DNA of 64,000 nt from a bacterium. GTDB lineage: Bacteria > Patescibacteriota > Dojkabacteria > GCA-016699595 > JBAXKR01. Every line of letters begins with the position of its first letter. Position 1 is the stretch's first letter. The position numbers and the translations under genes were made by a program. The stretch is from the NCBI GenBank assembly GCA_037131125.1, contig JBAXRR010000001.1:7345-71344 (forward strand). Direction: 5' to 3'. Positions 5,147 to 17,343 of this stretch are shown here, one piece after another. The notes under the pieces were generated by a model. It worked only from the letters and a program-made list of their open reading frames with translations, had not been told where the DNA came from and did not search any database.

Positions 5147-6967
5147 ATGTGTGGAATTGTAGGATTTAGTGGTAAAAACGAAAAAATGTTACATTCAATG
5201 CTAGGTACTATTGAGCATCGTGGTCCAGATGGTGAGGGAATGGAAGTTAATAACTTCTTTAGTATTGGAATGAGAAGACTTGCAATTATAGATCCAAATG
5301 GTGGATGGCAACCTATATATAACAAGGATAAGAGTGTATGTATAGTTTTTAATGGAGAGATATATAACTATCAAGAAGTCTGGAAAGAACTTCAAACACT
5401 TGGATATGAATTCTCAACTGATCATAGTGATACCGAGACTATACTTCATGGATATGAAGAATGGGGAGTATATGTGTTAAATAAGATCAAAGGAATGTTT
5501 GCATTTGCAATATGGGATTCTCGAATCCAAAAACTCTTTATTGCAAGAGATCGACTCGGAATTAAACCACTCTACTACTACAATGAGAATGGAAAGTTTG
5601 TATTTGGATCTGAAATTAAAGCACTGCTTGTAACCAATCTAATTCATAGAGAATATGATGAAGAAACTTTAATGAAGTTTCTTATGTTTAGAGTTCATGA
5701 CTCAACTGAGCAGACGTTCTTTAAAGGAATTAAAAGACTCCAACCTGGTCATTACATGATTGTTGGTGAAAATGGTATAGAAGGGATTAAGAAATATTGG
5801 AATCCTACATTTAATCCTAATTTCAAATCTGAAAAGACCGATGATGAATATGCAAAAGAGTTCTACGATTTATACAAATCCACTATTAAAAGACACATTA
5901 TTTCAGATGTTCCAGTTGGAGTTTCTCTTTCTGGTGGATTAGATTCTAGCGGAGTTGTATCTGTAATGAGAGAACTCATGCTTGAAGGATCGGATCTTCA
6001 TACATCAGGAAAGTTATTTACCTTCTCTGCTCTTTATCCAGGGAAAAGTATAGATGAAAGTAAATATATTAATGAAGTGGAAAGATATGTAGAGAGTACT
6101 CCTGAATATGCATATCCAAGTGTAGATAAGTTTTGGGAAGAAATAAATGAATGGATAATTACTCAAGAAGAACCAACCATATCTTCAGCTCCATATGCAT
6201 ATTACTCTGTGTATAGAAAAGCTTCTGAATTTGTAAAAGTAATGCTTTCAGGAAATGGTGGAGATGAACTTTTAGCTGGATATCTTCCATACTTTAAGTC
6301 GTATGCTACTTCTGCAATTAACCAAGGAGAATACATTCCACTTGCAAGGGAACTTGTTAAGTCTTTCGGAATATATGGAAAGTATTTAGGAGAATTAGTT
6401 TCATCTAAGCTCTCCTCAAAATCTAACCTATTGTCGATGAAAGATTTTCTCTTAGAAGAGAAGAAGAAGTATAAATACAATTACAAATCTTCAGATAATT
6501 TAAATGAAAGACTATTTAATGATGTTACACAGTACTCTACTCCTAACCTTCTTCGTTATGAGGATAAGAATTCAATGGCGTTTTCAATTGAATCTAGAGT
6601 TCCATTTCTAGATAGCGATTTAGTTGAATATATATTTAATCTTCCAATAGACCAGAAGATTAAAAATGGTTGGACAAGATATGTATACAGAAATGCAATG
6701 AAGGGACATATGCCTGAACTAAACAGGTTGAGACGAAGTAAGATTGGCTTTACCAATCCAGAACAAGGTTGGATGAGAGATAAGGGAGACATTATTCTTT
6801 CTATCTTTGAATCTGACCTATTTAAATCCAGAGGAATATATGACACTAATGCTGTTGTCTCTATGTTTAAAAAATGGATAATTAATCCTGATGCAATTCA
6901 AGGAGATGGATTAATATTTTGGAGAATATTAGTTACTGAGCTTTGGATGAGAAATTATCTTGATTAA
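5147..6967 (+). CDS. asnB: asparagine synthetase, glutamine-hydrolysing
   Basis: Starts MCGIVGF (Ntn-amidotransferase catalytic Cys2). It has the PP-loop SLSGGLDSS of the synthetase domain and is 606 aa. Confidence 0.9.
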   Translation: MCGIVGFSGKNEKMLHSMLGTIEHRGPDGEGMEVNNFFSIGMRRLAIIDPNGGWQPIYNKDKSVCIVFNGEIYNYQEVWKELQTLGYEFSTDHSDTETILHGYEEWGVYVLNKIKGMFAFAIWDSRIQKLFIARDRLGIKPLYYYNENGKFVFGSEIKALLVTNLIHREYDEETLMKFLMFRVHDSTEQTFFKGIKRLQPGHYMIVGENGIEGIKKYWNPTFNPNFKSEKTDDEYAKEFYDLYKSTIKRHIISDVPVGVSLSGGLDSSGVVSVMRELMLEGSDLHTSGKLFTFSALYPGKSIDESKYINEVERYVESTPEYAYPSVDKFWEEINEWIITQEEPTISSAPYAYYSVYRKASEFVKVMLSGNGGDELLAGYLPYFKSYATSAINQGEYIPLARELVKSFGIYGKYLGELVSSKLSSKSNLLSMKDFLLEEKKKYKYNYKSSDNLNERLFNDVTQYSTPNLLRYEDKNSMAFSIESRVPFLDSDLVEYIFNLPIDQKIKNGWTRYVYRNAMKGHMPELNRLRRSKIGFTNPEQGWMRDKGDIILSIFESDLFKSRGIYDTNAVVSMFKKWIINPDAIQGDGLIFWRILVTELWMRNYLD

Positions 6968-7028
6968 TAAATTCACTGGAATATATTCCAGATGAAATAT
7001 TACATACTATATATATTATGTTTACTAC

Positions 7029-9522: not shown

Positions 9523-10038
9523 ATGAGAAATAATAAGTCTTTTACAATTGTAGAACTTCTAGTAGTTATGGCCGTAATTGGTGTGCTTCTATCTCTTGCT
9601 GTATTTGGAATTCAAGCGCTTCAGAAGAATCAGAGGGAGACTCAACGAATGCAGGATCTTAAGAATATACAAGGACAACTTGAGGCATTCTATACAAAGT
9701 ATAGAAGATATCCTGTAAGTGGAAGTAATAACAATGCAGAACTTAGAGTTAATGGAAATAATCTTGAAATTAATGTAGGTTTTCAACCTGATCCTTCTTC
9801 TACCTTTGCAACAATTCCAATTCAATCTATGACACCATTAATCCTCGTAGGAAATTATGATACTTATGATTGTAATGATCCATTTAATACTCCTTCTGCA
9901 GATAATTGGAATATTATTTATGCAACAATAAGACAAGATTTAAATCCCAATCCTCAAGTATATGAGCTTTTTGGATGCACAGAAGGAGGAAAGACAAACA
10001 ATCTTGGTGGATCTGATGATCTAGAGTATAACGACTAA
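9523..10038 (+). CDS. type IV pilin / pseudopilin with a prepilin N-terminal methylation motif
   Basis: N-terminus MRNNKSFTIVELLVVMAVIGVLLSLAV: a short basic leader, then the class III signal G/F-T-(I/L)-x-E and a hydrophobic helix with E at +5. Confidence 0.8.
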   Translation: MRNNKSFTIVELLVVMAVIGVLLSLAVFGIQALQKNQRETQRMQDLKNIQGQLEAFYTKYRRYPVSGSNNNAELRVNGNNLEINVGFQPDPSSTFATIPIQSMTPLILVGNYDTYDCNDPFNTPSADNWNIIYATIRQDLNPNPQVYELFGCTEGGKTNNLGGSDDLEYND

Positions 10039-10286: not shown

Positions 10287-10316
10287 CGTTACAAAATGTA
10301 ACGGTTTGTATTTCTT
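10287..10316. terminator. putative bidirectional terminator hairpin between the convergent pilin gene and clpC
   Basis: Perfect 7-bp stem cgttaca-aaa-tgtaacg at 10287-10303 followed by the T-rich gtttgtatttctt on the plus strand. It lies immediately after the clpC stop at 10315-10317. Confidence 0.35.
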
Positions 10317-12843
10317 AAGCCTTCTGACTAATTAATTCTTTTGCAACCAACTTTCCCTTTTCCCACTTAAGAAGATATTCACTTTCTTCATTAAGTTCGG
10401 ATCCAAGTAGCATTGAAGATAAGTTATTCTCTATATTCTTTTGTATTACTCTTCTTATTTCTCTTGCTCCGTAAAGATCGCTGAATCCTTTTTCCAAAAC
10501 CATATCTACTATAGATTTATCAAATTCAACATTAATCTTTTGTGCTTTTATCTCTCCTTTAACTTTCTCAAGTTCAAGTTTAACAATATCTTTTATTTCT
10601 GCTTTGGTTAGAGATTCAAAGATAATAATCTCATCTATTCTGTTAAGGAACTCTGGTTTAAAGAATTTATTAAGTTCAATCATTACTTCATCTTTTACTT
10701 TTCCCCAACCAGTTCTTTTTTCTTTTGGTGCAACAATCTTTTCCTCATCATCAAACCCACCCTTCTTTTTGTTATTTTCATTTATAGTTGAGTCAACTTT
10801 AAAATCAAAACCTAAAGTGTTTCCAATTTTACCTTCTCTTGTGAAGTCTTGAATAATGTCTGCACCAATATTAGATGTAGCTATTACAATTGTATTCTTG
10901 AAATCTACCACTCTTCCTTTTCCATCTGTAAGTCTTCCATCTTCAAGTATTTGAAGAAGAGAATTAAATACTTCTGGATGGGCTTTTTCAATCTCATCTA
11001 AAAGAATAATAGAATATGGTTGTCTTCTTATCTTCTCAGTTAGTTGACCACCATCGTCAAATCCTACATAACCTGGAGGAGAACCAATAAGTTTAGATAC
11101 ATTAAACTTTTCTGAGTATTCACTCATATCTATTCTCACAATTGCGTTTTCTGATCCAAACAATATCTTAGATAATGTTTTGGCAAGTTCTGTTTTACCT
11201 ACACCTGTTGGTCCTAAGAATAGGAACGAAGCGATTGGTCTATTAGGGTTCTTAAGACCTGCTCTTGCCCTTCTTACTGCTTCAGCTACAGCTTTAACTG
11301 CCTCGCTTTGTCCTACTAATGTTTTATGTATTTCACTTTCTAGTTTAAGAAGTTTTTTTCTTTCTTCTGATTTAAGTTCAGTTACGGGAACACTTGTAAT
11401 TTGTGAGATTATTGTTGCAACATCATCTACAGTTAGAACTGGAGTTCCAGTTCCTCTACTTTGATTCCATTTGTCTATTAATGGTTTAAGTGATTCTGTC
11501 TTCTTGTCTATAGATATCTTAAGTGTTGCTGCTTCCTCATATTTCTTTGTTCTAGTTAAGCTTTCTCTTTCCTGTTCAAGTTTTTTAATTTCAGATTCCA
11601 ATGCACGAATATCATCAGGCTTACTGAATGCTTCAAGTCTCAACTTGGATGCACCTTCATCTATTACATCGATTGCTTTATCCGGAAGGAATCTATCTGT
11701 AATATATCTTTCACTAAGTTCGCTAGCCGCTACAAGTGCTTCATCACTAATCTTTATTCTATGATGAGATTCATATTTATCTACTATCCCCCTTAGAATA
11801 TCTATAGTTTCACTAACACTTGGTTCTTTTACGATGATTGGTTGAAAACGTCTTTCAAGTGCTGCATCTTTTTCAATATATTTCTGATATTCATTTAACG
11901 TAGTTGCACCAATTACTTGAAGTTCTCCTCTAGCAAGTGGTGGTTTAAGTATATTAGATAAATCTAGTCCTCCCTCTTGGTTACCTGTTCCTACAATTGT
12001 GTGAAGTTCATCTATGAATAGAATAACCTCTCCATTACTCTTTTGTATTTCAGAAAGTATTTTCATTGCTCTTTCTTCGAACTCTCCTCTGAATTTAGCA
12101 CCTGCCATTAAAAGACCTAAGTCCAATGCCATAACTCTTTTGTTAAGAAGAATCTCTGGAACATTTTCTGATGCGATCTTTAGCGCAAGACCCTCAGCTA
12201 TTGCAGTCTTACCAACACCAGGATCTCCAATTAAAACTGGATTGTTCTTTTTTCTACGAGATAAAATTTGAATAACTCTTGTAACTTCATTCTTACGACC
12301 AATAACTGGATCTATCTTTCCAGAAGCTGCATACGCAGTTAGATCTTTTGCAAACTTATCTAGTGTTGGAGTTTTACTGGCATCTTTTTTATTAGCATCA
12401 CCTTCTCCTACAACTTCTGTTACAACCTTATGAAGTTTCTCATAAGTGAGTCCCATAGATTTAAGAACTTGAGCTGCAAGTCCTTCTCCTTCAGAGAGCA
12501 GTCCTAAAAGAATATGCTCAGGTCCTATGTATGTATGATTCATACTTCTAGATTCTTGGAAGGTTATTTCAAGAACTTGTTTTGCACGAGGTGCTAGATC
12601 TATTCTTCCTTCACTAAAATTTCCTGCTGTCATCATGGAGGTCATATTTGTTCTGACCTCTTCTACATCCATATTAAGTTTTTCAAATATCTTTTGAATT
12701 AATTCATCTTGAAGTAAAGCTAAGAGTATATGTTCAGTATCGATATACTTCCTTCTAAACTCTACAGCAATTGATGCTGCATTTTGTAAAACTGCTTTTG
12801 CTTTTTCTGAGAATATTTCTAGTAAGTTAAACATGTTATCCAT
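10315..12843 (-). CDS. clpC: ATP-dependent Clp protease ATP-binding subunit, ClpC-type AAA+ unfoldase
   Basis: Two Clp_N repeats sit at the N-terminus. Walker A motifs GDPGVGKTA (NBD1) and GPTGVGKTE (NBD2) are present. The short middle domain has a UvrB/C-like coiled-coil (LESEIKKLEQERE), which is ClpC-like rather than ClpB-like. Total 842 aa. A ~40-aa Lys-rich insertion lies near the C-terminus of NBD2. Confidence 0.85.
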   Translation of the reverse strand: MDNMFNLLEIFSEKAKAVLQNAASIAVEFRRKYIDTEHILLALLQDELIQKIFEKLNMDVEEVRTNMTSMMTAGNFSEGRIDLAPRAKQVLEITFQESRSMNHTYIGPEHILLGLLSEGEGLAAQVLKSMGLTYEKLHKVVTEVVGEGDANKKDASKTPTLDKFAKDLTAYAASGKIDPVIGRKNEVTRVIQILSRRKKNNPVLIGDPGVGKTAIAEGLALKIASENVPEILLNKRVMALDLGLLMAGAKFRGEFEERAMKILSEIQKSNGEVILFIDELHTIVGTGNQEGGLDLSNILKPPLARGELQVIGATTLNEYQKYIEKDAALERRFQPIIVKEPSVSETIDILRGIVDKYESHHRIKISDEALVAASELSERYITDRFLPDKAIDVIDEGASKLRLEAFSKPDDIRALESEIKKLEQERESLTRTKKYEEAATLKISIDKKTESLKPLIDKWNQSRGTGTPVLTVDDVATIISQITSVPVTELKSEERKKLLKLESEIHKTLVGQSEAVKAVAEAVRRARAGLKNPNRPIASFLFLGPTGVGKTELAKTLSKILFGSENAIVRIDMSEYSEKFNVSKLIGSPPGYVGFDDGGQLTEKIRRQPYSIILLDEIEKAHPEVFNSLLQILEDGRLTDGKGRVVDFKNTIVIATSNIGADIIQDFTREGKIGNTLGFDFKVDSTINENNKKKGGFDDEEKIVAPKEKRTGWGKVKDEVMIELNKFFKPEFLNRIDEIIIFESLTKAEIKDIVKLELEKVKGEIKAQKINVEFDKSIVDMVLEKGFSDLYGAREIRRVIQKNIENNLSSMLLGSELNEESEYLLKWEKGKLVAKELISQKA

Positions 12844-13034: not shown

Positions 13035-13508
13035 TTGTTATCCAATTACCCAATGCTCTACTCTCCTAATTCTAAATCTATTAAGAATGATTTATCTAAA
13101 TATGATAAATCTAAAGAGATTGTATTCATTTCTCAAGCATCTATTAATATGTGTTGGGCAAGAAAGCTATGTCAGTATGTAATAGAGAAAGGATTGGTTC
13201 CAGTTAACTATTTCACTGTGTATTCTAACTTCGTACATGAACTTGCCTCCCTTCAAACCATGATTGACTGTATTAATACCTTAATAGTTAGATGTGACTA
13301 TCTATGGGTATTTGGTGAAATAAGTGAAGGTATGTGGCATGAGATTAAAATGTGTAAGGAATTAGGAATACCAGTAAGATACTTCTCCATAGAAAAACTT
13401 CCAGAAGAGATTAACGAGATTACTGAAGATAAGGCTATTTATACTCCTAAGTTTGAAAAGAAGATGAAGGAAGATTTATCTTTTTATCCTGTTAATGCAA
13501 GTAAGTAA
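13035..13508 (+). CDS. nucleoside 2-deoxyribosyltransferase-like Rossmann protein (DUF4406-type)
   Basis: IVFISQA...CDYLWVFGEISEGMWHEIKMCKELGIPV matches the DUF4406/NDT-like pattern cD.iy.l.gw..S.G...E...A..lG..V. Confidence 0.45.
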   Translation: MLSNYPMLYSPNSKSIKNDLSKYDKSKEIVFISQASINMCWARKLCQYVIEKGLVPVNYFTVYSNFVHELASLQTMIDCINTLIVRCDYLWVFGEISEGMWHEIKMCKELGIPVRYFSIEKLPEEINEITEDKAIYTPKFEKKMKEDLSFYPVNASK

Positions 13509-13512
13509 GAAG

Positions 13513-13845
13513 CTAAAATTTAATTGTAATAACGCATGGGGCAATAGAAGTTAAACAAATGAACATATTTCCAAGAGCTTTCCATCTTTTTTCTCCAAAT
13601 TCTTCTCCATTTACTTTGTCTTCTTGTCTGAAATCTAAATTCTTAATTCCATAATATGCTGCACTTATTGCTCCAAATGCTAGTGACCCTGTTCTTGCCA
13701 ACTCTATAATATCTTTCCAAGCTTTACTATCTGGATGAGTACTAAGTAAGTAGCTTCCTGCAAAGTTAATGACAAGTGATTGAAGAATTACAACACTTGG
13801 AAGGTCAAATCGAGGTTTGTCATTTGGTTGTTGTTGTTCTTTCAT
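13513..13845 (-). CDS. small hypothetical membrane protein (110 aa)
   Basis: Two hydrophobic segments. Its start is 1 nt after the stop of the upstream HTH-CYTH gene, so the two are probably co-transcribed. Confidence 0.4.
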   Translation of the reverse strand: MKEQQQPNDKPRFDLPSVVILQSLVINFAGSYLLSTHPDSKAWKDIIELARTGSLAFGAISAAYYGIKNLDFRQEDKVNGEEFGEKRWKALGNMFICLTSIAPCVITIKF

Positions 13846-13846
13846 T

Positions 13847-14605
13847 TTAGTATCTGGATAACTTTTCCATAGCTAGGTAAGTTACACTCTTAACAACTTC
13901 ATCTTCTTTTTTGAGTCCTAACTTTCTTGCAAAGTTTCTTATTTCTTCAACTACCATTTCCCTATTCTTTTCAGTTTTATGTTCTATCTCTATTCCTGTT
14001 CCAAAGTCTTTAATATCATCAATGCAAATTTTAAGATCTTCGAATGAATACATTATTCTAGCCTTATCTATTGTCATGAATTCTTTTAAATTCATAAGTT
14101 TTAGAAGATTATTTGTTTCCTCATAGTTCTTTACTTCGATTTCAGATTCTATGCATGTGTTATGGTTAAGTGCATCCGTTAATCTTTTTACTTCAAGTGA
14201 AGTAGTTATCTTTCCTGTATAGTCATTGTCTTGTTCTCGAATTCTAAGGCCGAATCCTTCACCTGAATCAAAATCTCTATTTTTTTCTTCAAGGTTTTTA
14301 ATATGGTTACCTATATACCAGTGATCTACTATATGACTTAGATGTGTAACTCTTGCTCCAATAGTTATTAGTTTGTTCTCAATTGCTTTTCTATCCTTAC
14401 ATAAATATCTAAGTTCAACTTCAGCAATTTCCTTTTGAGGTTTTTTTGAGTTAATGAAAGCATCCAGATCGGATTTCTTTATTCTAATATTCTTACCTAT
14501 CTTTGATGCTTTTAGTTCTTTAGAATCTATGTAGTTTCTTACAGATTGCCAGTGAACCTTGAGTATGTCTGCAGTTTCATTTATGGTAAGGAGTGTGTCA
14601 CTCAT
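13847..14605 (-). CDS. HTH (excisionase/MerR-like, HTH_17) fused to a CYTH (CyaB/thiamine-triphosphatase-like) domain
   Basis: N-terminal LTINETADILKVHWQSVRNYIDSKELKASKIGKNIRIKKSDLDAFI is an Xis/MerR-type HTH. The C-terminal part has CYTH signatures: EVELRY (ExExK-like), FGLRIRE, TSLEVK, and ICIDDIKDFGTGIEIE (compare CyaB ...vDhl.glGdFaEIE). Confidence 0.55.
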   Translation of the reverse strand: MSDTLLTINETADILKVHWQSVRNYIDSKELKASKIGKNIRIKKSDLDAFINSKKPQKEIAEVELRYLCKDRKAIENKLITIGARVTHLSHIVDHWYIGNHIKNLEEKNRDFDSGEGFGLRIREQDNDYTGKITTSLEVKRLTDALNHNTCIESEIEVKNYEETNNLLKLMNLKEFMTIDKARIMYSFEDLKICIDDIKDFGTGIEIEHKTEKNREMVVEEIRNFARKLGLKKEDEVVKSVTYLAMEKLSRY

Positions 14606-14839
14606 TAAATTATTTGTTAAAAATAGATAGAAATATTGTAACTCCTTATATACTAAAGATCAACTTAGTGATAATACGATATAACTTCTTGAGCTTTACT
14701 TCTAGATTGAGGTCAGATAGATTGGTCAGTATAAATATCCTCTTTTGTGTTTTTAAGGTAAATGGGGATATAATCCAAATCTGGTTTACTTTAAATTAAT
14801 GTTGTTTTAATTTATATTCGAGTATACTTTGCCTGTTTT

Positions 14840-14857
14840 ACACTATATATATAGTGT
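14840..14857. promoter_or_regulatory. perfect 18-bp palindrome ACACTATATATATAGTGT in the divergent HTH-CYTH / topA intergenic region
   Basis: Self-complementary over 18 nt, about 30 bp upstream of the topA start and about 235 bp from the HTH-CYTH start. It is a candidate operator for a dimeric HTH protein. Confidence 0.4.
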
Positions 14858-14886
14858 GGAAATAAATAATATTTAAGAACAAGTTT

Positions 14887-17343
14887 ATGAAATTAGTAGT
14901 AGTAGAGTCACCAACAAAAGCAAAAACGATCTCTAAGTTTTTACCTAAAGAGTACTATGTCATTGCTTCTCAAGGACACATTCGTGATCTTCCAAGAAAT
15001 GCAGCTGAGGTTCCAGCTAAGTTTAAGAAAGAGAAATGGGCAAGTCTTGGTGTTGATGTAAAGAATGACTATAATCCTCTCTATGTAATATCTTCTGAAA
15101 AGAAAAAGATTATTAAATCTTTAAAAGAACACTTAGAAAAATCAGATGAATTAATACTCGCAACTGATGAAGATAGAGAAGGAGAATCTATTTCTTGGCA
15201 TCTTAAAGAAGTACTTAAACCTACTGTTCCAGTATCTAGAATGGTATTTCATGAGATCACAAAAGAAGCTATAGCTGACGCCTTAAAATCTCCTCGTAAG
15301 ATTGATCAGAAGATTGTAGATGCACAAGAAGCTAGAAGAATATTAGACAGATTATTTGGCTATACACTCTCCCCTCTTTTATGGAAGAAAATTGCACTTG
15401 GTCTTTCTGCAGGTAGAGTTCAATCTGTTGCAGTAAGATTAATTGTTAATAGAGAGAAAGAAAGAAGAAATTTTGTTAAGGGATCCTTTTGGGATCTTAA
15501 AGCTATTGTTACACCAACAGCACTTGCAGATAAATTTGAAAGTTCATTAGAAAAGATTGAGAACTTATCTGTTGCAAAGGGTGCTGACTTCGATGAGCAA
15601 ACAGGTAAGATTAAAAATGAGAATAAAGTAATATTACTAGATGAGAAATCTGCAAATAAAATAAAAGATTTACTTCAGGATTCTGAATTCAAAGTATTAG
15701 ATGTAAAAGAATCTGAACAAGTTAGAAATCCATATGCACCATTTATTACTTCTTCTTTACAAATTGAAGCAAATAGAAAGTTAGGTTTTGCAGCAAAGTA
15801 CACAATGCAAGTTGCTCAAAGACTTTATGAAAATGGACTGATTACATACATGAGAACAGATTCTACTAATCTTTCACACCAAGCACTAGATGCAATAAGA
15901 AACAATATTGTTGAAAGATATGGTAAAGAATATTTATCTGATGAGGTCCGAGTCTACACAAAGAAATCAAAAGGTGCACAAGAAGCTCATGAGGCAATTA
16001 GGCCTGCTGGAAGCTCTATGCCAACATCTGAAGAGTTAAATCTATCTGGTGATGAATCTAGACTCTATGATCTAATTTGGAAAAGATCTATGGCTACACA
16101 AATGAAGGAAGCAAGAGTTAAGGTTATTAGTATATCTATAAATTCTAAAGTTTCTTCTGATTCTAAATCTAAAGATATAGCGGAACTTATAAAGTTAGAA
16201 AAGAATTCTAAAGAAATTAATTTCTTATTTAAAGCATCTGGAAGAAGAATAATATTTCCAGGATTCTTAAGAGCTTATGTTGAAGGAAATGATAATCCAG
16301 AAAATGCACTAGATGACTCTGAGAAGATACTACCAGAATTAAAAGTAGAACAAGTATTAAAATTACTTGAGCTTAATGAGGAATCTCATGAGACTAAACC
16401 ACCTGCAAGATATACAGATGCAACTTTAGTTAAGAAACTAGAACAAGAAGGAATTGGAAGACCAAGTACTTATGCTTCAATTATTTCTACAATTGTAGAT
16501 AGAGGATATATTGTGAAGAAGAATAATCAGCTGATACCAACATTCACGGCATATTCAGTTACTAATCTTCTTGAAAAATATTTTACTAAATTAGTTGATC
16601 TTAACTTCACAGCTGAAATGGAAGGTAGTTTAGATAAGATAGAAGAAGGAGAAATTAAATGGCTTCCATATTTGAAGTCTTTCTATGAAGGAAAAGAAGG
16701 ATTGGAAAACCAAGTAAAAGAAAAGAATGAAATTATAGATGCACGTGAAATGTGTACACTTAAGATTGCAAACTTCCCATATGACATTAGAGTTGGGAAA
16801 TATGGTGCATTTGTAGAGATAGAGAATAAAAAAGATCCTGAGAATCCAACTAGAGTTACAATAGATGAATCCGTTGCACCTGCAGATATTAATGAAGAAG
16901 AAGTTAAAAGACTTGTTGTAGCGAAGAAAGAATCTGACAAACCACTTGGTACAGACCCTGTTTCCGGAAAAGATGTATACCTTCTTGTTGGAAAGTATGG
17001 TCCATATGTTCAACTTGGCAGACCAGAAAAAGAATCTAAAGAGAAGGTTAAACGTGTATCTATTCCTAAAACACTTCCACTAGATATGGTGGATATTAAG
17101 AAAGCTCTTCAACTTCTTGAACTTCCTAAGACTCTTGGGCAAAATGCAGATGGAAAAGATGTAAAAATAGGAATAGGTCGATTTGGTCCATACATATTAA
17201 TAGATGGAGTGTTTAAGTCTATCCCTGCAAAGGAAGATATGTTTGCGCTAACTCTTGATGAAGCTATCGAGATATTTAGACTAAAGCTTCTAAAGGCAAC
17301 TGGGAGAAAGAGATTCTTCCCTCGCAAAAGTTTTAAAAAGTAG
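14887..17343 (+). CDS. topA: DNA topoisomerase I
   Basis: Toprim N-terminus MKLVVVESPTKAKTISKFL. The active-site region ITYMRTDST carries the catalytic Tyr. The C-terminal repeats GKYGAFVE / GKYGPYVQLG / GRFGPYIL are Topo_C_Rpt repeats rather than zinc ribbons. 818 aa. Confidence 0.9.
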   Translation: MKLVVVESPTKAKTISKFLPKEYYVIASQGHIRDLPRNAAEVPAKFKKEKWASLGVDVKNDYNPLYVISSEKKKIIKSLKEHLEKSDELILATDEDREGESISWHLKEVLKPTVPVSRMVFHEITKEAIADALKSPRKIDQKIVDAQEARRILDRLFGYTLSPLLWKKIALGLSAGRVQSVAVRLIVNREKERRNFVKGSFWDLKAIVTPTALADKFESSLEKIENLSVAKGADFDEQTGKIKNENKVILLDEKSANKIKDLLQDSEFKVLDVKESEQVRNPYAPFITSSLQIEANRKLGFAAKYTMQVAQRLYENGLITYMRTDSTNLSHQALDAIRNNIVERYGKEYLSDEVRVYTKKSKGAQEAHEAIRPAGSSMPTSEELNLSGDESRLYDLIWKRSMATQMKEARVKVISISINSKVSSDSKSKDIAELIKLEKNSKEINFLFKASGRRIIFPGFLRAYVEGNDNPENALDDSEKILPELKVEQVLKLLELNEESHETKPPARYTDATLVKKLEQEGIGRPSTYASIISTIVDRGYIVKKNNQLIPTFTAYSVTNLLEKYFTKLVDLNFTAEMEGSLDKIEEGEIKWLPYLKSFYEGKEGLENQVKEKNEIIDAREMCTLKIANFPYDIRVGKYGAFVEIENKKDPENPTRVTIDESVAPADINEEEVKRLVVAKKESDKPLGTDPVSGKDVYLLVGKYGPYVQLGRPEKESKEKVKRVSIPKTLPLDMVDIKKALQLLELPKTLGQNADGKDVKIGIGRFGPYILIDGVFKSIPAKEDMFALTLDEAIEIFRLKLLKATGRKRFFPRKSFKK

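Follow-up and report, generated by a model that had tools for sequence, protein, structure and literature searches.

Genes and features of the locus

We analysed a stretch of 64,000 nucleotides (hereafter the window) of contig JBAXRR010000001.1, from a bacterium of the Dojkabacteria, with a focus on a 252-residue protein encoded between clpC and topA. This protein was found to combine an excisionase/MerR-type winged helix-turn-helix (HTH) domain with a CYTH domain of the triphosphate tunnel metalloenzyme (TTM) type, and its most probable role is that of a regulator in which triphosphate binding would be coupled to DNA binding. Its open reading frame (ORF), at 13847-14605 on the minus strand, carries the motifs that had been quoted in an earlier reading of the same DNA made from the letters alone (the sequence-only reading). 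The features of the locus are the following.

13847..14605, minus strand: HTH_17-CYTH (TTM) fusion gene, 252 aa (ORF, domain matches, 60 homologue clusters, structural model)
14444..14593, minus strand: excisionase/MerR-type winged HTH, aa 5-54 (PF12728, TIGR01764)
13850..14428, minus strand: CYTH/TTM domain, aa 60-252, with the full set of tunnel residues (PF01928, TIGR00318, conservation, fold match)
13513..13845, minus strand: ORFan of 110 aa with 2-3 hydrophobic segments (ORF list, cluster search)
13053..13508, plus strand: gene of a DUF7768 protein, 151 aa, of the nucleoside deoxyribosyltransferase (NDT)-like superfamily, convergent with the operon (PF24963, PHROG 355)
14840..14857, no strand: perfect 18-bp palindrome ACACTATATATATAGTGT (palindrome scan)
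10315-12843, minus strand: clpC, one flank of the region
14887-17343, plus strand: topA, the opposite flank, with its ATG at 14887

The gene for PBP1A comes next after topA. The genome has a GC content of 32%, which is flat across the locus, and no tRNA, GC shift or flanking repeat that would mark an island was found around the HTH-CYTH gene in the window.

Domain composition and predicted fold

The fusion of an HTH to a CYTH domain, as claimed in the sequence-only reading, is borne out by the Pfam profiles. HTH_17 (PF12728) matches residues 5-54 with an E-value of 2.3e-14 (53.8 bits against a cutoff of 27), and CYTH (PF01928) matches with an E-value of 3.4e-9 (37.2 bits against a cutoff of 23.2), a match that is also precomputed for most of the homologues. 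The NCBIfam model of the excisionase DNA-binding domain, TIGR01764, is likewise matched above its cutoff (E 2e-9, 37.6 bits against 28.8).

An AlphaFold2 (AF2) model built on 37 family members has a mean predicted local distance difference test score (pLDDT) of 91. It is laid out as a small helix-turn-helix-wing domain (helices 8-15 and 19-27, strand 41-43, helix 44-51), an inter-domain linker of about 10 residues (pLDDT of about 70 for residues 51-60), and a beta-barrel followed by a C-terminal helix (241-249). The strands of the CYTH domain span residues 61-69, 85-99, 119-127, 133-144, 147-158, 173-188, 191-198 and 202-211, and the model exhibits the eight-stranded antiparallel beta-barrel tunnel with its C-terminal plug helix. 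The sequence-only reading had staked its proposal beforehand on the fold of this C-terminal domain, which does model as a CYTH tunnel. The best Foldseek matches in the PDB are 2dc4, 1yem, 2een, SaTTM (7ns9/7nsd) and the Yersinia pestis cyclase YpAC-IV (2fjt/3n0y), with E-values of about 1e-11 and target-normalized template modelling (TM) scores of 0.72-0.86 (2dc4, 1yem, 7ns9, 2fjt). A profile-sequence search gave the same relatives.

The closest solved relative of the HTH domain is the mycobacteriophage excisionase Xis Gp37 (Pukovnik; 4j2n), and the domain also matches PHROG 66. The coiled-coil dimerization helix and the effector region of MerR proteins are absent, as the CYTH barrel follows the HTH after the linker, and none of the full MerR Pfam models matches the protein. 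Membership of the MerR family was rejected on account of the missing C-terminal coiled coil and the missing full-length match.

The fusion family and its conservation

A word-indexed search returned 60 homologue clusters, nearly all of them full-length (251-258 aa), with identities of 44-78%; the named sources are Candidatus Dojkabacteria, Patescibacteria or WWE3 metagenome-assembled genomes (MAGs), with Dojkabacteria making up the majority. In an exhaustive search of representative sequences, which gave 849 matches, about a dozen full-length fusion representatives came out on top, ahead of stand-alone CYTH proteins some 195 aa long with 30-45% identity. Genome-contig loci were found by alignment-based scans, a scan with the single HTH-CYTH protein having given none. 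Judging from these sequences, the HTH-CYTH fusion is a real, lineage-specific family that is kept as a stand-alone gene in Dojkabacteria-like Patescibacteria.

The full set of tunnel residues is conserved across the fusion family: E62, R121, K140, H148, E153 and R183 are invariant, and E64, R66, R123, K132, E138, K181, D196, K199, E206 and E208 are conserved in at least 90% of the members. The set includes both the basic tunnel residues (RxR among others) and the C-terminal acidic ExE metal site. Conservation is equally high in the HTH, where the segment V17-H18-W19-Q20..R23 is invariant or at least 90% conserved, with H18, Q20 and R23 invariant and W19 nearly so. Hardly any variation is seen across the family in the recognition-helix region, KVHWQ(T/S)VRNYI, which would imply a conserved DNA target.

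The hallmark ExExK of the superfamily reads ExExR here, both glutamates being kept and the lysine being replaced by an arginine (R66) in the fusions and in their stand-alone relatives. The latter also share with the fusions the DHW(Y/F) strand and the KSxT..AM..LA.F C-terminal helix. As the nearest stand-alone relatives share ExExR and more distant CYTH matches carry ExExK again, the fusion appears to have arisen inside an ExExR subfamily of CYTH proteins. The stand-alone ExExR proteins themselves (P0071-P0102, about 195 aa) define an uncharacterized CYTH subfamily, and at one locus (L031) the fusion gene is followed, 2.2 kb further downstream, by a stand-alone CYTH copy (5855-6442).

A degenerate paralogue subfamily, P0060, was found at four loci (L005 and L006, 6001-6759; L021, 5001-5756; L046, 3001-3756). 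In these proteins EVDTW replaces ExExR and IDIGI replaces VEIE, and Pfam gives no CYTH match. The P0060 gene always lies downstream of a tyrosine recombinase gene and upstream of greA, and the MAG CG_2015-02_35_19 has both a P0060 copy (L021) and a canonical one (L018). The P0060 sequences suggest that the HTH and the barrel scaffold were kept without catalysis, which would favour DNA binding or regulation as the core function.

The recombinase neighbour also bears on the possibility that the protein serves a mobile element as an excisionase-like recombination directionality factor and carries the CYTH domain as cargo. The matches of the HTH to TIGR01764, PHROG 66 and Xis Gp37 are consistent with such a role, as is the position of the degenerate paralogue in L005 and L021, directly downstream of the recombinase gene. 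Nevertheless, no integrase adjoins the canonical family members in about 28 other contexts, the gene is surrounded by core housekeeping genes with none of the island marks mentioned above, and it behaves as a vertically conserved gene, with 44-78% identity within one lineage. We regard this as the least probable of the explanations weighed here.

Predicted chemistry of the CYTH domain

The best NCBIfam match of the protein is TIGR00318 (cyaB), with an E-value of 1e-13 and a score of 51.4 bits, which is under the equivalog cutoff of 57.95. Three determinants of true class IV adenylate cyclases were set out by Vogt et al. 2021 (PMC8233210): an HF motif four residues ahead of ExExK (HFxxxxExExK), the replacement of the first arginine of xxRxR by a small residue (valine, cysteine or leucine in cyclases), and the replacement of the second glutamate of ExE by alanine. 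In the HTH-CYTH protein, no HF motif stands ahead of E62, where the residues PQKEIA occupy columns of the linker that vary in the family. The invariant R121 means that the first arginine of RxR is kept, and E208, conserved in at least 90% of the family, keeps the second glutamate of ExE. Since all three cyclase determinants fail and the TIGR00318 score is sub-cutoff, the CYTH domain is predicted to be a TTM of the phosphohydrolase type like SaTTM, acting on inorganic triphosphate (PPPi) or nucleoside triphosphates (NTPs), rather than a class IV cyclase forming cyclic AMP (cAMP). Membership of the class IV adenylate cyclases was rejected on the same grounds (HF absent, R121 and E208 kept, 51.4 against 57.95 bits).

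A DNA-binding class IV cyclase, in which the CYTH domain would make cAMP as CyaB of Aeromonas and Yersinia does, has in its favour that cyaB is the best NCBIfam match, that YpAC-IV structures are among the top Foldseek matches, and that the automatic JGI name is 'predicted adenylyl cyclase CyaB'. These resemblances are set against the failure of every determinant and the sub-cutoff score. Furthermore, SaTTM, which is the nearest characterized relative by these criteria, forms no cyclic nucleotide (PMC8233210). We consider a cyclase highly unlikely.

The predicted promoter of the HTH-CYTH gene and a TATCA direct repeat

Two elements were located upstream of the gene, the first from a consensus scan and homologue comparison.

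14635..14663, minus strand: predicted sigma-70-type promoter, TTGATC-17-TACAAT
14668..14683, minus strand: TATATCG-TAT-TATCAC, a weak, degenerate, 8-nt-spaced relative of the direct repeat described below, with TATCAC at -68

The predicted -10 hexamer lies at -36 to -31 from the ATG, and TATAAT or TATCAT is found at the same position in most homologues. A k-mer enrichment against the coding background mainly recovered this -10 hexamer (TATAATC). In a comparison of 30 non-redundant upstream regions anchored on the ATG, the coding strand of six loci was seen to carry, at -37, -36 or -31, a direct repeat that matches TATCA-N5-TATCA exactly and typically reads TATCATTCATTATCAT.

L024, 895-909
L030, 101-115
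L002, 5970-5984
L026, L035 and L039, each 2964-2978

One pair of the proteins encoded at these six loci shares 80% identity; all other pairs share only 48-58%, and the six proteins are spread across the family tree. In the remaining sequence of the loci, 208 kb with both strands counted, the repeat was found twice. Simulated upstream sets contained it in 0.04 loci on average and in at most 2 (2000 trials), compared with the 6 observed; with any 5-mer repeat at spacings of 7-12 nt allowed, no more than 4 loci were reached in 300 simulations. Among the hexamers between -120 and -1, TTATCA shows the strongest enrichment (11/29 against 3 expected), with TTGACA and TATAAT close to it in rank.

The repeat coincides in part with the -10 hexamer, the spacer or the predicted start of transcription. 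Its register relative to the -35 element varies, which is more in keeping with an operator than with a promoter element. HTH_17 domains of the Xis and BldC type bind in a head-to-tail manner to direct repeats spaced by one helical turn, and TATCA-N5-TATCA would fit a direct-repeat operator of the HTH_17 domain. In the window, the degenerate TATATCG-TAT-TATCAC sits just upstream of the -35 element. With one mismatch allowed, TATCA-N5-TATCA occurs 3 times in the window against 14 expected, with no occurrence at the gene, which provides no evidence of a regulon.

An inverted repeat, ACTAA-N8-TTAGT (14651-14668, minus strand), brackets the predicted -35 element TTGATC. In the closest orthologous locus (L007, 78% identity), TTAGT-T-ACTAA is found just upstream of the TTGACA of that locus; with two species compared, this may be due to chance.

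The 18-bp palindrome and topA

The palindrome ACACTATATATATAGTGT at 14840-14857 is perfect, as the sequence-only reading had stated, and is without a second copy in the window. For this reason it is not a dispersed repeat, AT-rich or otherwise. Its designation as an obvious candidate operator, on the other hand, is poorly supported. In first-order Markov simulations, at 68% A+T and a chance of about 0.28 for a complementary pair, 0.68 perfect palindromes of at least 18 bp are expected per 64-kb window against 1 observed, and the counts at 12, 14 and 16 bp are also near expectation. In the sequence itself, four matched pairs lengthen a (TA)5 run. The palindrome belongs to the topA side of the intergenic region: it precedes the ATG of topA by 30 nt, and its distance is 235 nt to the ATG of the HTH-CYTH gene and about 180 nt to the promoter predicted for that gene. 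In L007, the left arm and the TA core are kept and the right arm is changed, and no palindrome was found to be common to the upstream regions of the homologues. Position, conservation and homologue comparison therefore gave no tie between the palindrome and the HTH-CYTH protein.

Several blocks near the palindrome are conserved in L007, namely AAAACAGGCAAAGTATACYCGAATAT, GGATTATATCCCC and AAAACACAAAA, the first of which contains TTGCCT and adjoins the palindrome. In regulation of the MerR type, a palindromic operator is expected within a 19-20 bp spacer between the -35 and -10 elements of the target promoter; the palindrome can be placed after a TTTACA hexamer, with no convincing -10 element following it. 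An Rfam scan of the intergenic regions gave no match, and the fold of the leader RNA was no better than that of shuffled sequences (z = -0.54). The palindrome probably belongs to the promoter or the leader of topA, or else arose by chance from the (TA)5 run. It could also be a functional control element of topA, either a cruciform-prone or easily melted (TA)5 sensor of supercoiling or the operator of another regulator, in which case it would be unrelated to autoregulation of the HTH-CYTH gene. Its proximity to the topA ATG, beside the conserved AAAACAGGCAAAGTATACYCGAATAT, and the retention of the TA core and the left arm in L007 speak for such an element, whereas the loss of the right arm, the chance expectation of about 0.7 per window and the lack of both significant RNA structure and an Rfam match speak against it. 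The footprinting covers two species only. We judge a control element to be distinctly unlikely.

Two further observations concern promoter-like and palindromic sequences of the window. GGGGATATAATCC at 14764-14776 on the plus strand is conserved with L007 and has a perfect TATAAT, which faces topA and has TTGTGT ahead of it at a spacing of 18 nt (14745-14774). If this is the topA promoter, the palindrome would lie in a leader of about 105 nt and not in the promoter. The second-longest perfect palindrome in the window is CTGGAATATATTCCAG (16 bp), located 13 nt from ATACTATATATATTATGT, which is the sole near-match (3 mismatches) to the 18-bp palindrome (neighbouring sites 6976-6991 and 7004-7021).

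Neighbouring genes

Gene context was compared at 46 loci with near-full-length homologues, which collapse to 31 proteins of less than 90% identity. In an all-against-all comparison of the ORFs within 3-4 kb, no family recurred in more than 3 of the 31 non-redundant contexts, and the same clustering in 16 contexts gave nothing recurrent. The neighbours vary, and include msrA/msrB, a P-type ATPase, a PIF1 helicase, trmD, folD, greA and a tyrosine recombinase. Adjacency to topA is common only to the relatives at L008 (99%) and L007 (78%). The HTH-CYTH gene is a solitary gene without a conserved partner.

The sequence-only reading had described the fusion gene as translationally coupled to the 110-aa ORF. 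The spacing is indeed tight, as the ORF starts 1 nt past the HTH-CYTH stop codon (TAAAATG), but the partnership is not conserved. Among 5.8 billion clusters, the 110-aa protein matches only itself. It is absent in L007, since a convergent aldo-keto-reductase-like gene abuts the HTH-CYTH stop codon there. No relatives of the 110-aa or the DUF7768 protein were found within about 6 kb of 11 homologues, and none of the 31 non-redundant contexts has a small membrane ORF, homologous or not, downstream of the fusion gene. The co-occurrence of the pair in other genomes, which the sequence-only reading had suggested looking for, is accordingly not recurrent. By our own estimate, the chance of 110 stop-free codons is about 2e-4 per start in AT-rich DNA; the ORF is probably a real gene, although a species-specific one.

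The convergent neighbour had been assigned to DUF4406 or to NDT-like proteins. The former assignment is not supported, and the latter holds at the level of the superfamily only, the actual family being DUF7768. PF24963 (E 1.9e-12) is the sole significant Pfam match even when the E-value limit is raised to 1, with no match to PF05014 or DUF4406 at that limit. The start codon is the ATG at 13053 and not the TTG at 13035, as all 16 homologues begin with ML[YF]. PHROG 355, 'nucleoside 2-deoxyribosyltransferase', matches the protein with an E-value of 4e-11, the matches of its AF2 model to NDT, DNPH1 and MilB in Foldseek are weak (E about 1e-3, TM about 0.5), and a motif of the SxGxxxE type is present (S91-E92-G93-M94-W95-x-E97). 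Elsewhere, DUF7768 has a conserved context of its own, NUDIX-DUF7768-IleRS (ileS), in which it overlaps the 3' end of the NUDIX gene by 23-47 nt and precedes ileS (L022, 4622-5453; L023, 4625-5462). This arrangement suggests a nucleotide-sanitizing NUDIX-DUF7768 pair that has been split up in this window. No DUF7768 gene lies beside the fusion among the 31 non-redundant homologue contexts.

PADLOC gave a match to mad1 at the level of the HTH only (E 8e-6) and none for the other two proteins. A known anti-phage defence system was rejected, as no component matches beyond the HTH and no neighbourhood is conserved. The proposal of a three-gene nucleotide-signalling or abortive-infection module, in which the HTH-CYTH protein, the membrane protein and the NDT-like protein would form one unit controlled through the 18-bp palindrome, is largely refuted by these comparisons. 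It draws on the tight TAAAATG junction, the hydrophobicity of the 110-aa protein, the NDT-like superfamily of the neighbour and a palindrome that is perfect and unique. Nevertheless, the 110-aa protein is an ORFan missing from the 78% orthologue locus, 0 of 31 contexts have a DUF7768 or small membrane gene adjoining the fusion, and DUF7768 has its own NUDIX/IleRS context. Moreover, PADLOC recognizes the HTH alone, the genes on either side (clpC, topA, PBP1A) have housekeeping functions and lie in DNA of flat GC that is free of tRNA genes, and the palindrome is expected by chance and not conserved. We give this module very little credence. As far as the sequences tell, the ORFan of 110 aa, the gene for DUF7768, the adjacency to topA and the palindrome are local accidents of this genome and not part of the system. 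The locus is a warning against taking closely spaced genes and a perfect palindrome, where the DNA is AT-rich, as evidence of a functional module.

Further away in the window, a type IV pilin-like gene (9523-10038) lies on the opposite strand just downstream of clpC and encodes the N-terminal prepilin motif FTIVELLVVMAVIGVL; pilin-like genes of that kind are common in Patescibacteria.

Proposed function

We propose that the HTH-CYTH protein is a solitary one-component regulator, or 'trigger enzyme', that couples the binding and hydrolysis of a triphosphate to DNA binding, and we assign this a probability of about 0.5. The idea of a ligand-coupled DNA-binding protein, which goes back to the sequence-only reading, is thereby kept as the best reading, as a prediction. 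It builds on what is established here, namely the two domains, the tunnel fold, the family-wide conservation of the tunnel and the recognition helix, the restriction to one lineage and the lack of a gene partner. The protein would consist of an excisionase/MerR-type winged HTH tethered by a short flexible linker to a TTM that is, by its residues, predicted to be catalytically intact. It would probably dimerize through the CYTH domain, by analogy with SaTTM, which is reported to be dimeric, a state described as typical of CYTH proteins (PMC8233210). The dimer would then bind DNA through its two HTH domains. A triphosphate ligand, such as inorganic triphosphate, a short polyphosphate or an NTP, would alter this binding through occupancy of the tunnel, hydrolysis and switching between its open and closed states, and the protein would act as a trigger-enzyme regulator in the manner of BirA, NadR and NrtR. 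The likeliest target would be its own promoter, where several homologues carry TATCA-N5-TATCA, resulting in autoregulation.

Several points weigh against this proposal. DNA binding, dimerization, substrate and allostery are all predicted. The retention of all catalytic residues fits a plain enzyme equally well, and the lysine-to-arginine change in the ExExK signature, as seen in the alignments, adds uncertainty to the predicted catalysis. The degenerate P0060 proteins suggest that the scaffold can persist without catalysis. Finally, exact copies of the TATCA repeat are confined to 6 of about 30 promoters, the promoter in the window carries a degenerate repeat only, and the repeat may be a promoter feature, that is, a pair of -10-like hexamers.

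The main rival is a phosphohydrolase targeted to DNA or nucleic acids, in which the HTH would only localize an active TTM, at the nucleoid or at particular DNA sites, without any ligand-controlled transcription. Its substrates could be PPPi, NTPs or 5'-triphosphate ends, the latter as for the RNA triphosphatases of the Cet1 type. That all catalytic tunnel residues are conserved is something one would sooner expect of an enzyme than of an enzyme-derived sensor, TTMs do include RNA 5'-triphosphatases (PMC8233210), and no conserved target gene adjoins the fusion gene. However, the closest relatives are small-molecule TTMs (SaTTM and the CyaB-like proteins of Pyrococcus) and not Cet1-like enzymes, and the conserved recognition helix together with the promoter-overlapping repeat of several homologues points to sequence-specific binding of promoters. 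We consider a merely localized enzyme unlikely, if well worth bearing in mind.

As a one-component or trigger-enzyme regulator, the protein is predicted to have an unreported sensor/enzyme fold. A narrower version of this proposal, according to which no one-component transcription factor built on a CYTH/TTM domain was known before it, is tentative, and on balance we doubt it. In this version the protein would be a triphosphatase acting as a dimer, and filling of the tunnel by inorganic triphosphate, short polyphosphate or an NTP would govern how its excisionase-type HTH domains bind to a TATCA-N5-TATCA operator. If this version is true, the genome-reduced Dojkabacteria would gain a direct read-out of their phosphate and energy status, and inorganic triphosphate would have a regulatory role.

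CYTH/TTM enzymes are ancient and widespread, and both their physiological substrates and the role of inorganic triphosphate are still unclear. The fusion partners of CYTH domains given in the SaTTM paper are HD, exopolyphosphatase, nucleotidyl kinase and CHAD, all of them metabolic, with no HTH fusion mentioned (PMC8233210). A DNA-binding fusion suggests that the tunnel has been wired to gene expression in one lineage of the candidate phyla radiation. No description of HTH-CYTH fusions or of Dojkabacteria cyclases was found in the searchable literature, and the database names of the family are 'adenylyl cyclase CyaB', 'excisionase family DNA-binding protein' and 'CYTH domain-containing protein'. 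In the light of the present analysis, the names 'adenylyl cyclase CyaB' and 'excisionase', which were given automatically to members of the HTH-CYTH family, need correcting. The fusion would also offer a tractable handle on the natural ligand and, if the proposal is true, a new sensor fold in one-component signal transduction.

Comparison with known systems

The best matches in both sequence and fold are the archaeal CyaB-like TTMs, comprising SaTTM (Saci_0718; 7NS8/7NS9) and the proteins of P. furiosus (1YEM) and P. horikoshii (2DC4/2EEN), a likeness that extends to the determinants, which predict triphosphatase and not cyclase chemistry. These proteins are single-domain, with 165-200 aa and ExExK, whereas the HTH-CYTH protein has ExExR, an N-terminal DNA-binding domain and a longer loop joining the second strand (HxxDHWY) to GLRIRE. 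The class IV cyclase CyaB (YpAC-IV, 2FJT/3N0Y; TIGR00318) belongs to the same superfamily and shares the fold, but the HTH-CYTH protein fails its HF, small-residue-for-arginine and ExA determinants and scores below the cutoff of its model. With regard to the neighbour, the DUF7768 protein resembles the NDT-like superfamily (NDT, DNPH1, MilB/BcmB; PHROG 355) by PHROG match, fold and SxGxxxE-type motif, and differs from it in matching neither PF05014 nor DUF4406 and in its weak fold match; no functional link to the HTH-CYTH protein was seen.

The N-terminal 55 residues are similar to those of HTH_17/excisionase proteins, such as Xis of Pukovnik (Gp37, 4J2N), Streptomyces BldC and the N-terminal domain of MerR. 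Unlike the HTH-CYTH protein, Xis and BldC consist of one domain. MerR regulators possess a long coiled-coil dimerization helix and an effector pocket, both of which are absent here, and dimerization and effector binding would therefore fall to the CYTH domain. The closest parallels in logic would be BirA, NadR and NrtR, which are enzyme-repressors with an N-terminal HTH that couple the turnover of a metabolite to transcription. By analogy, the HTH-CYTH protein likewise places a DNA-binding domain on a catalytic domain that is predicted to handle nucleotides or phosphate, although the catalytic folds of BirA, NadR and NrtR are different, being those of a biotin ligase, an NMNAT/RNK and a Nudix protein, respectively.

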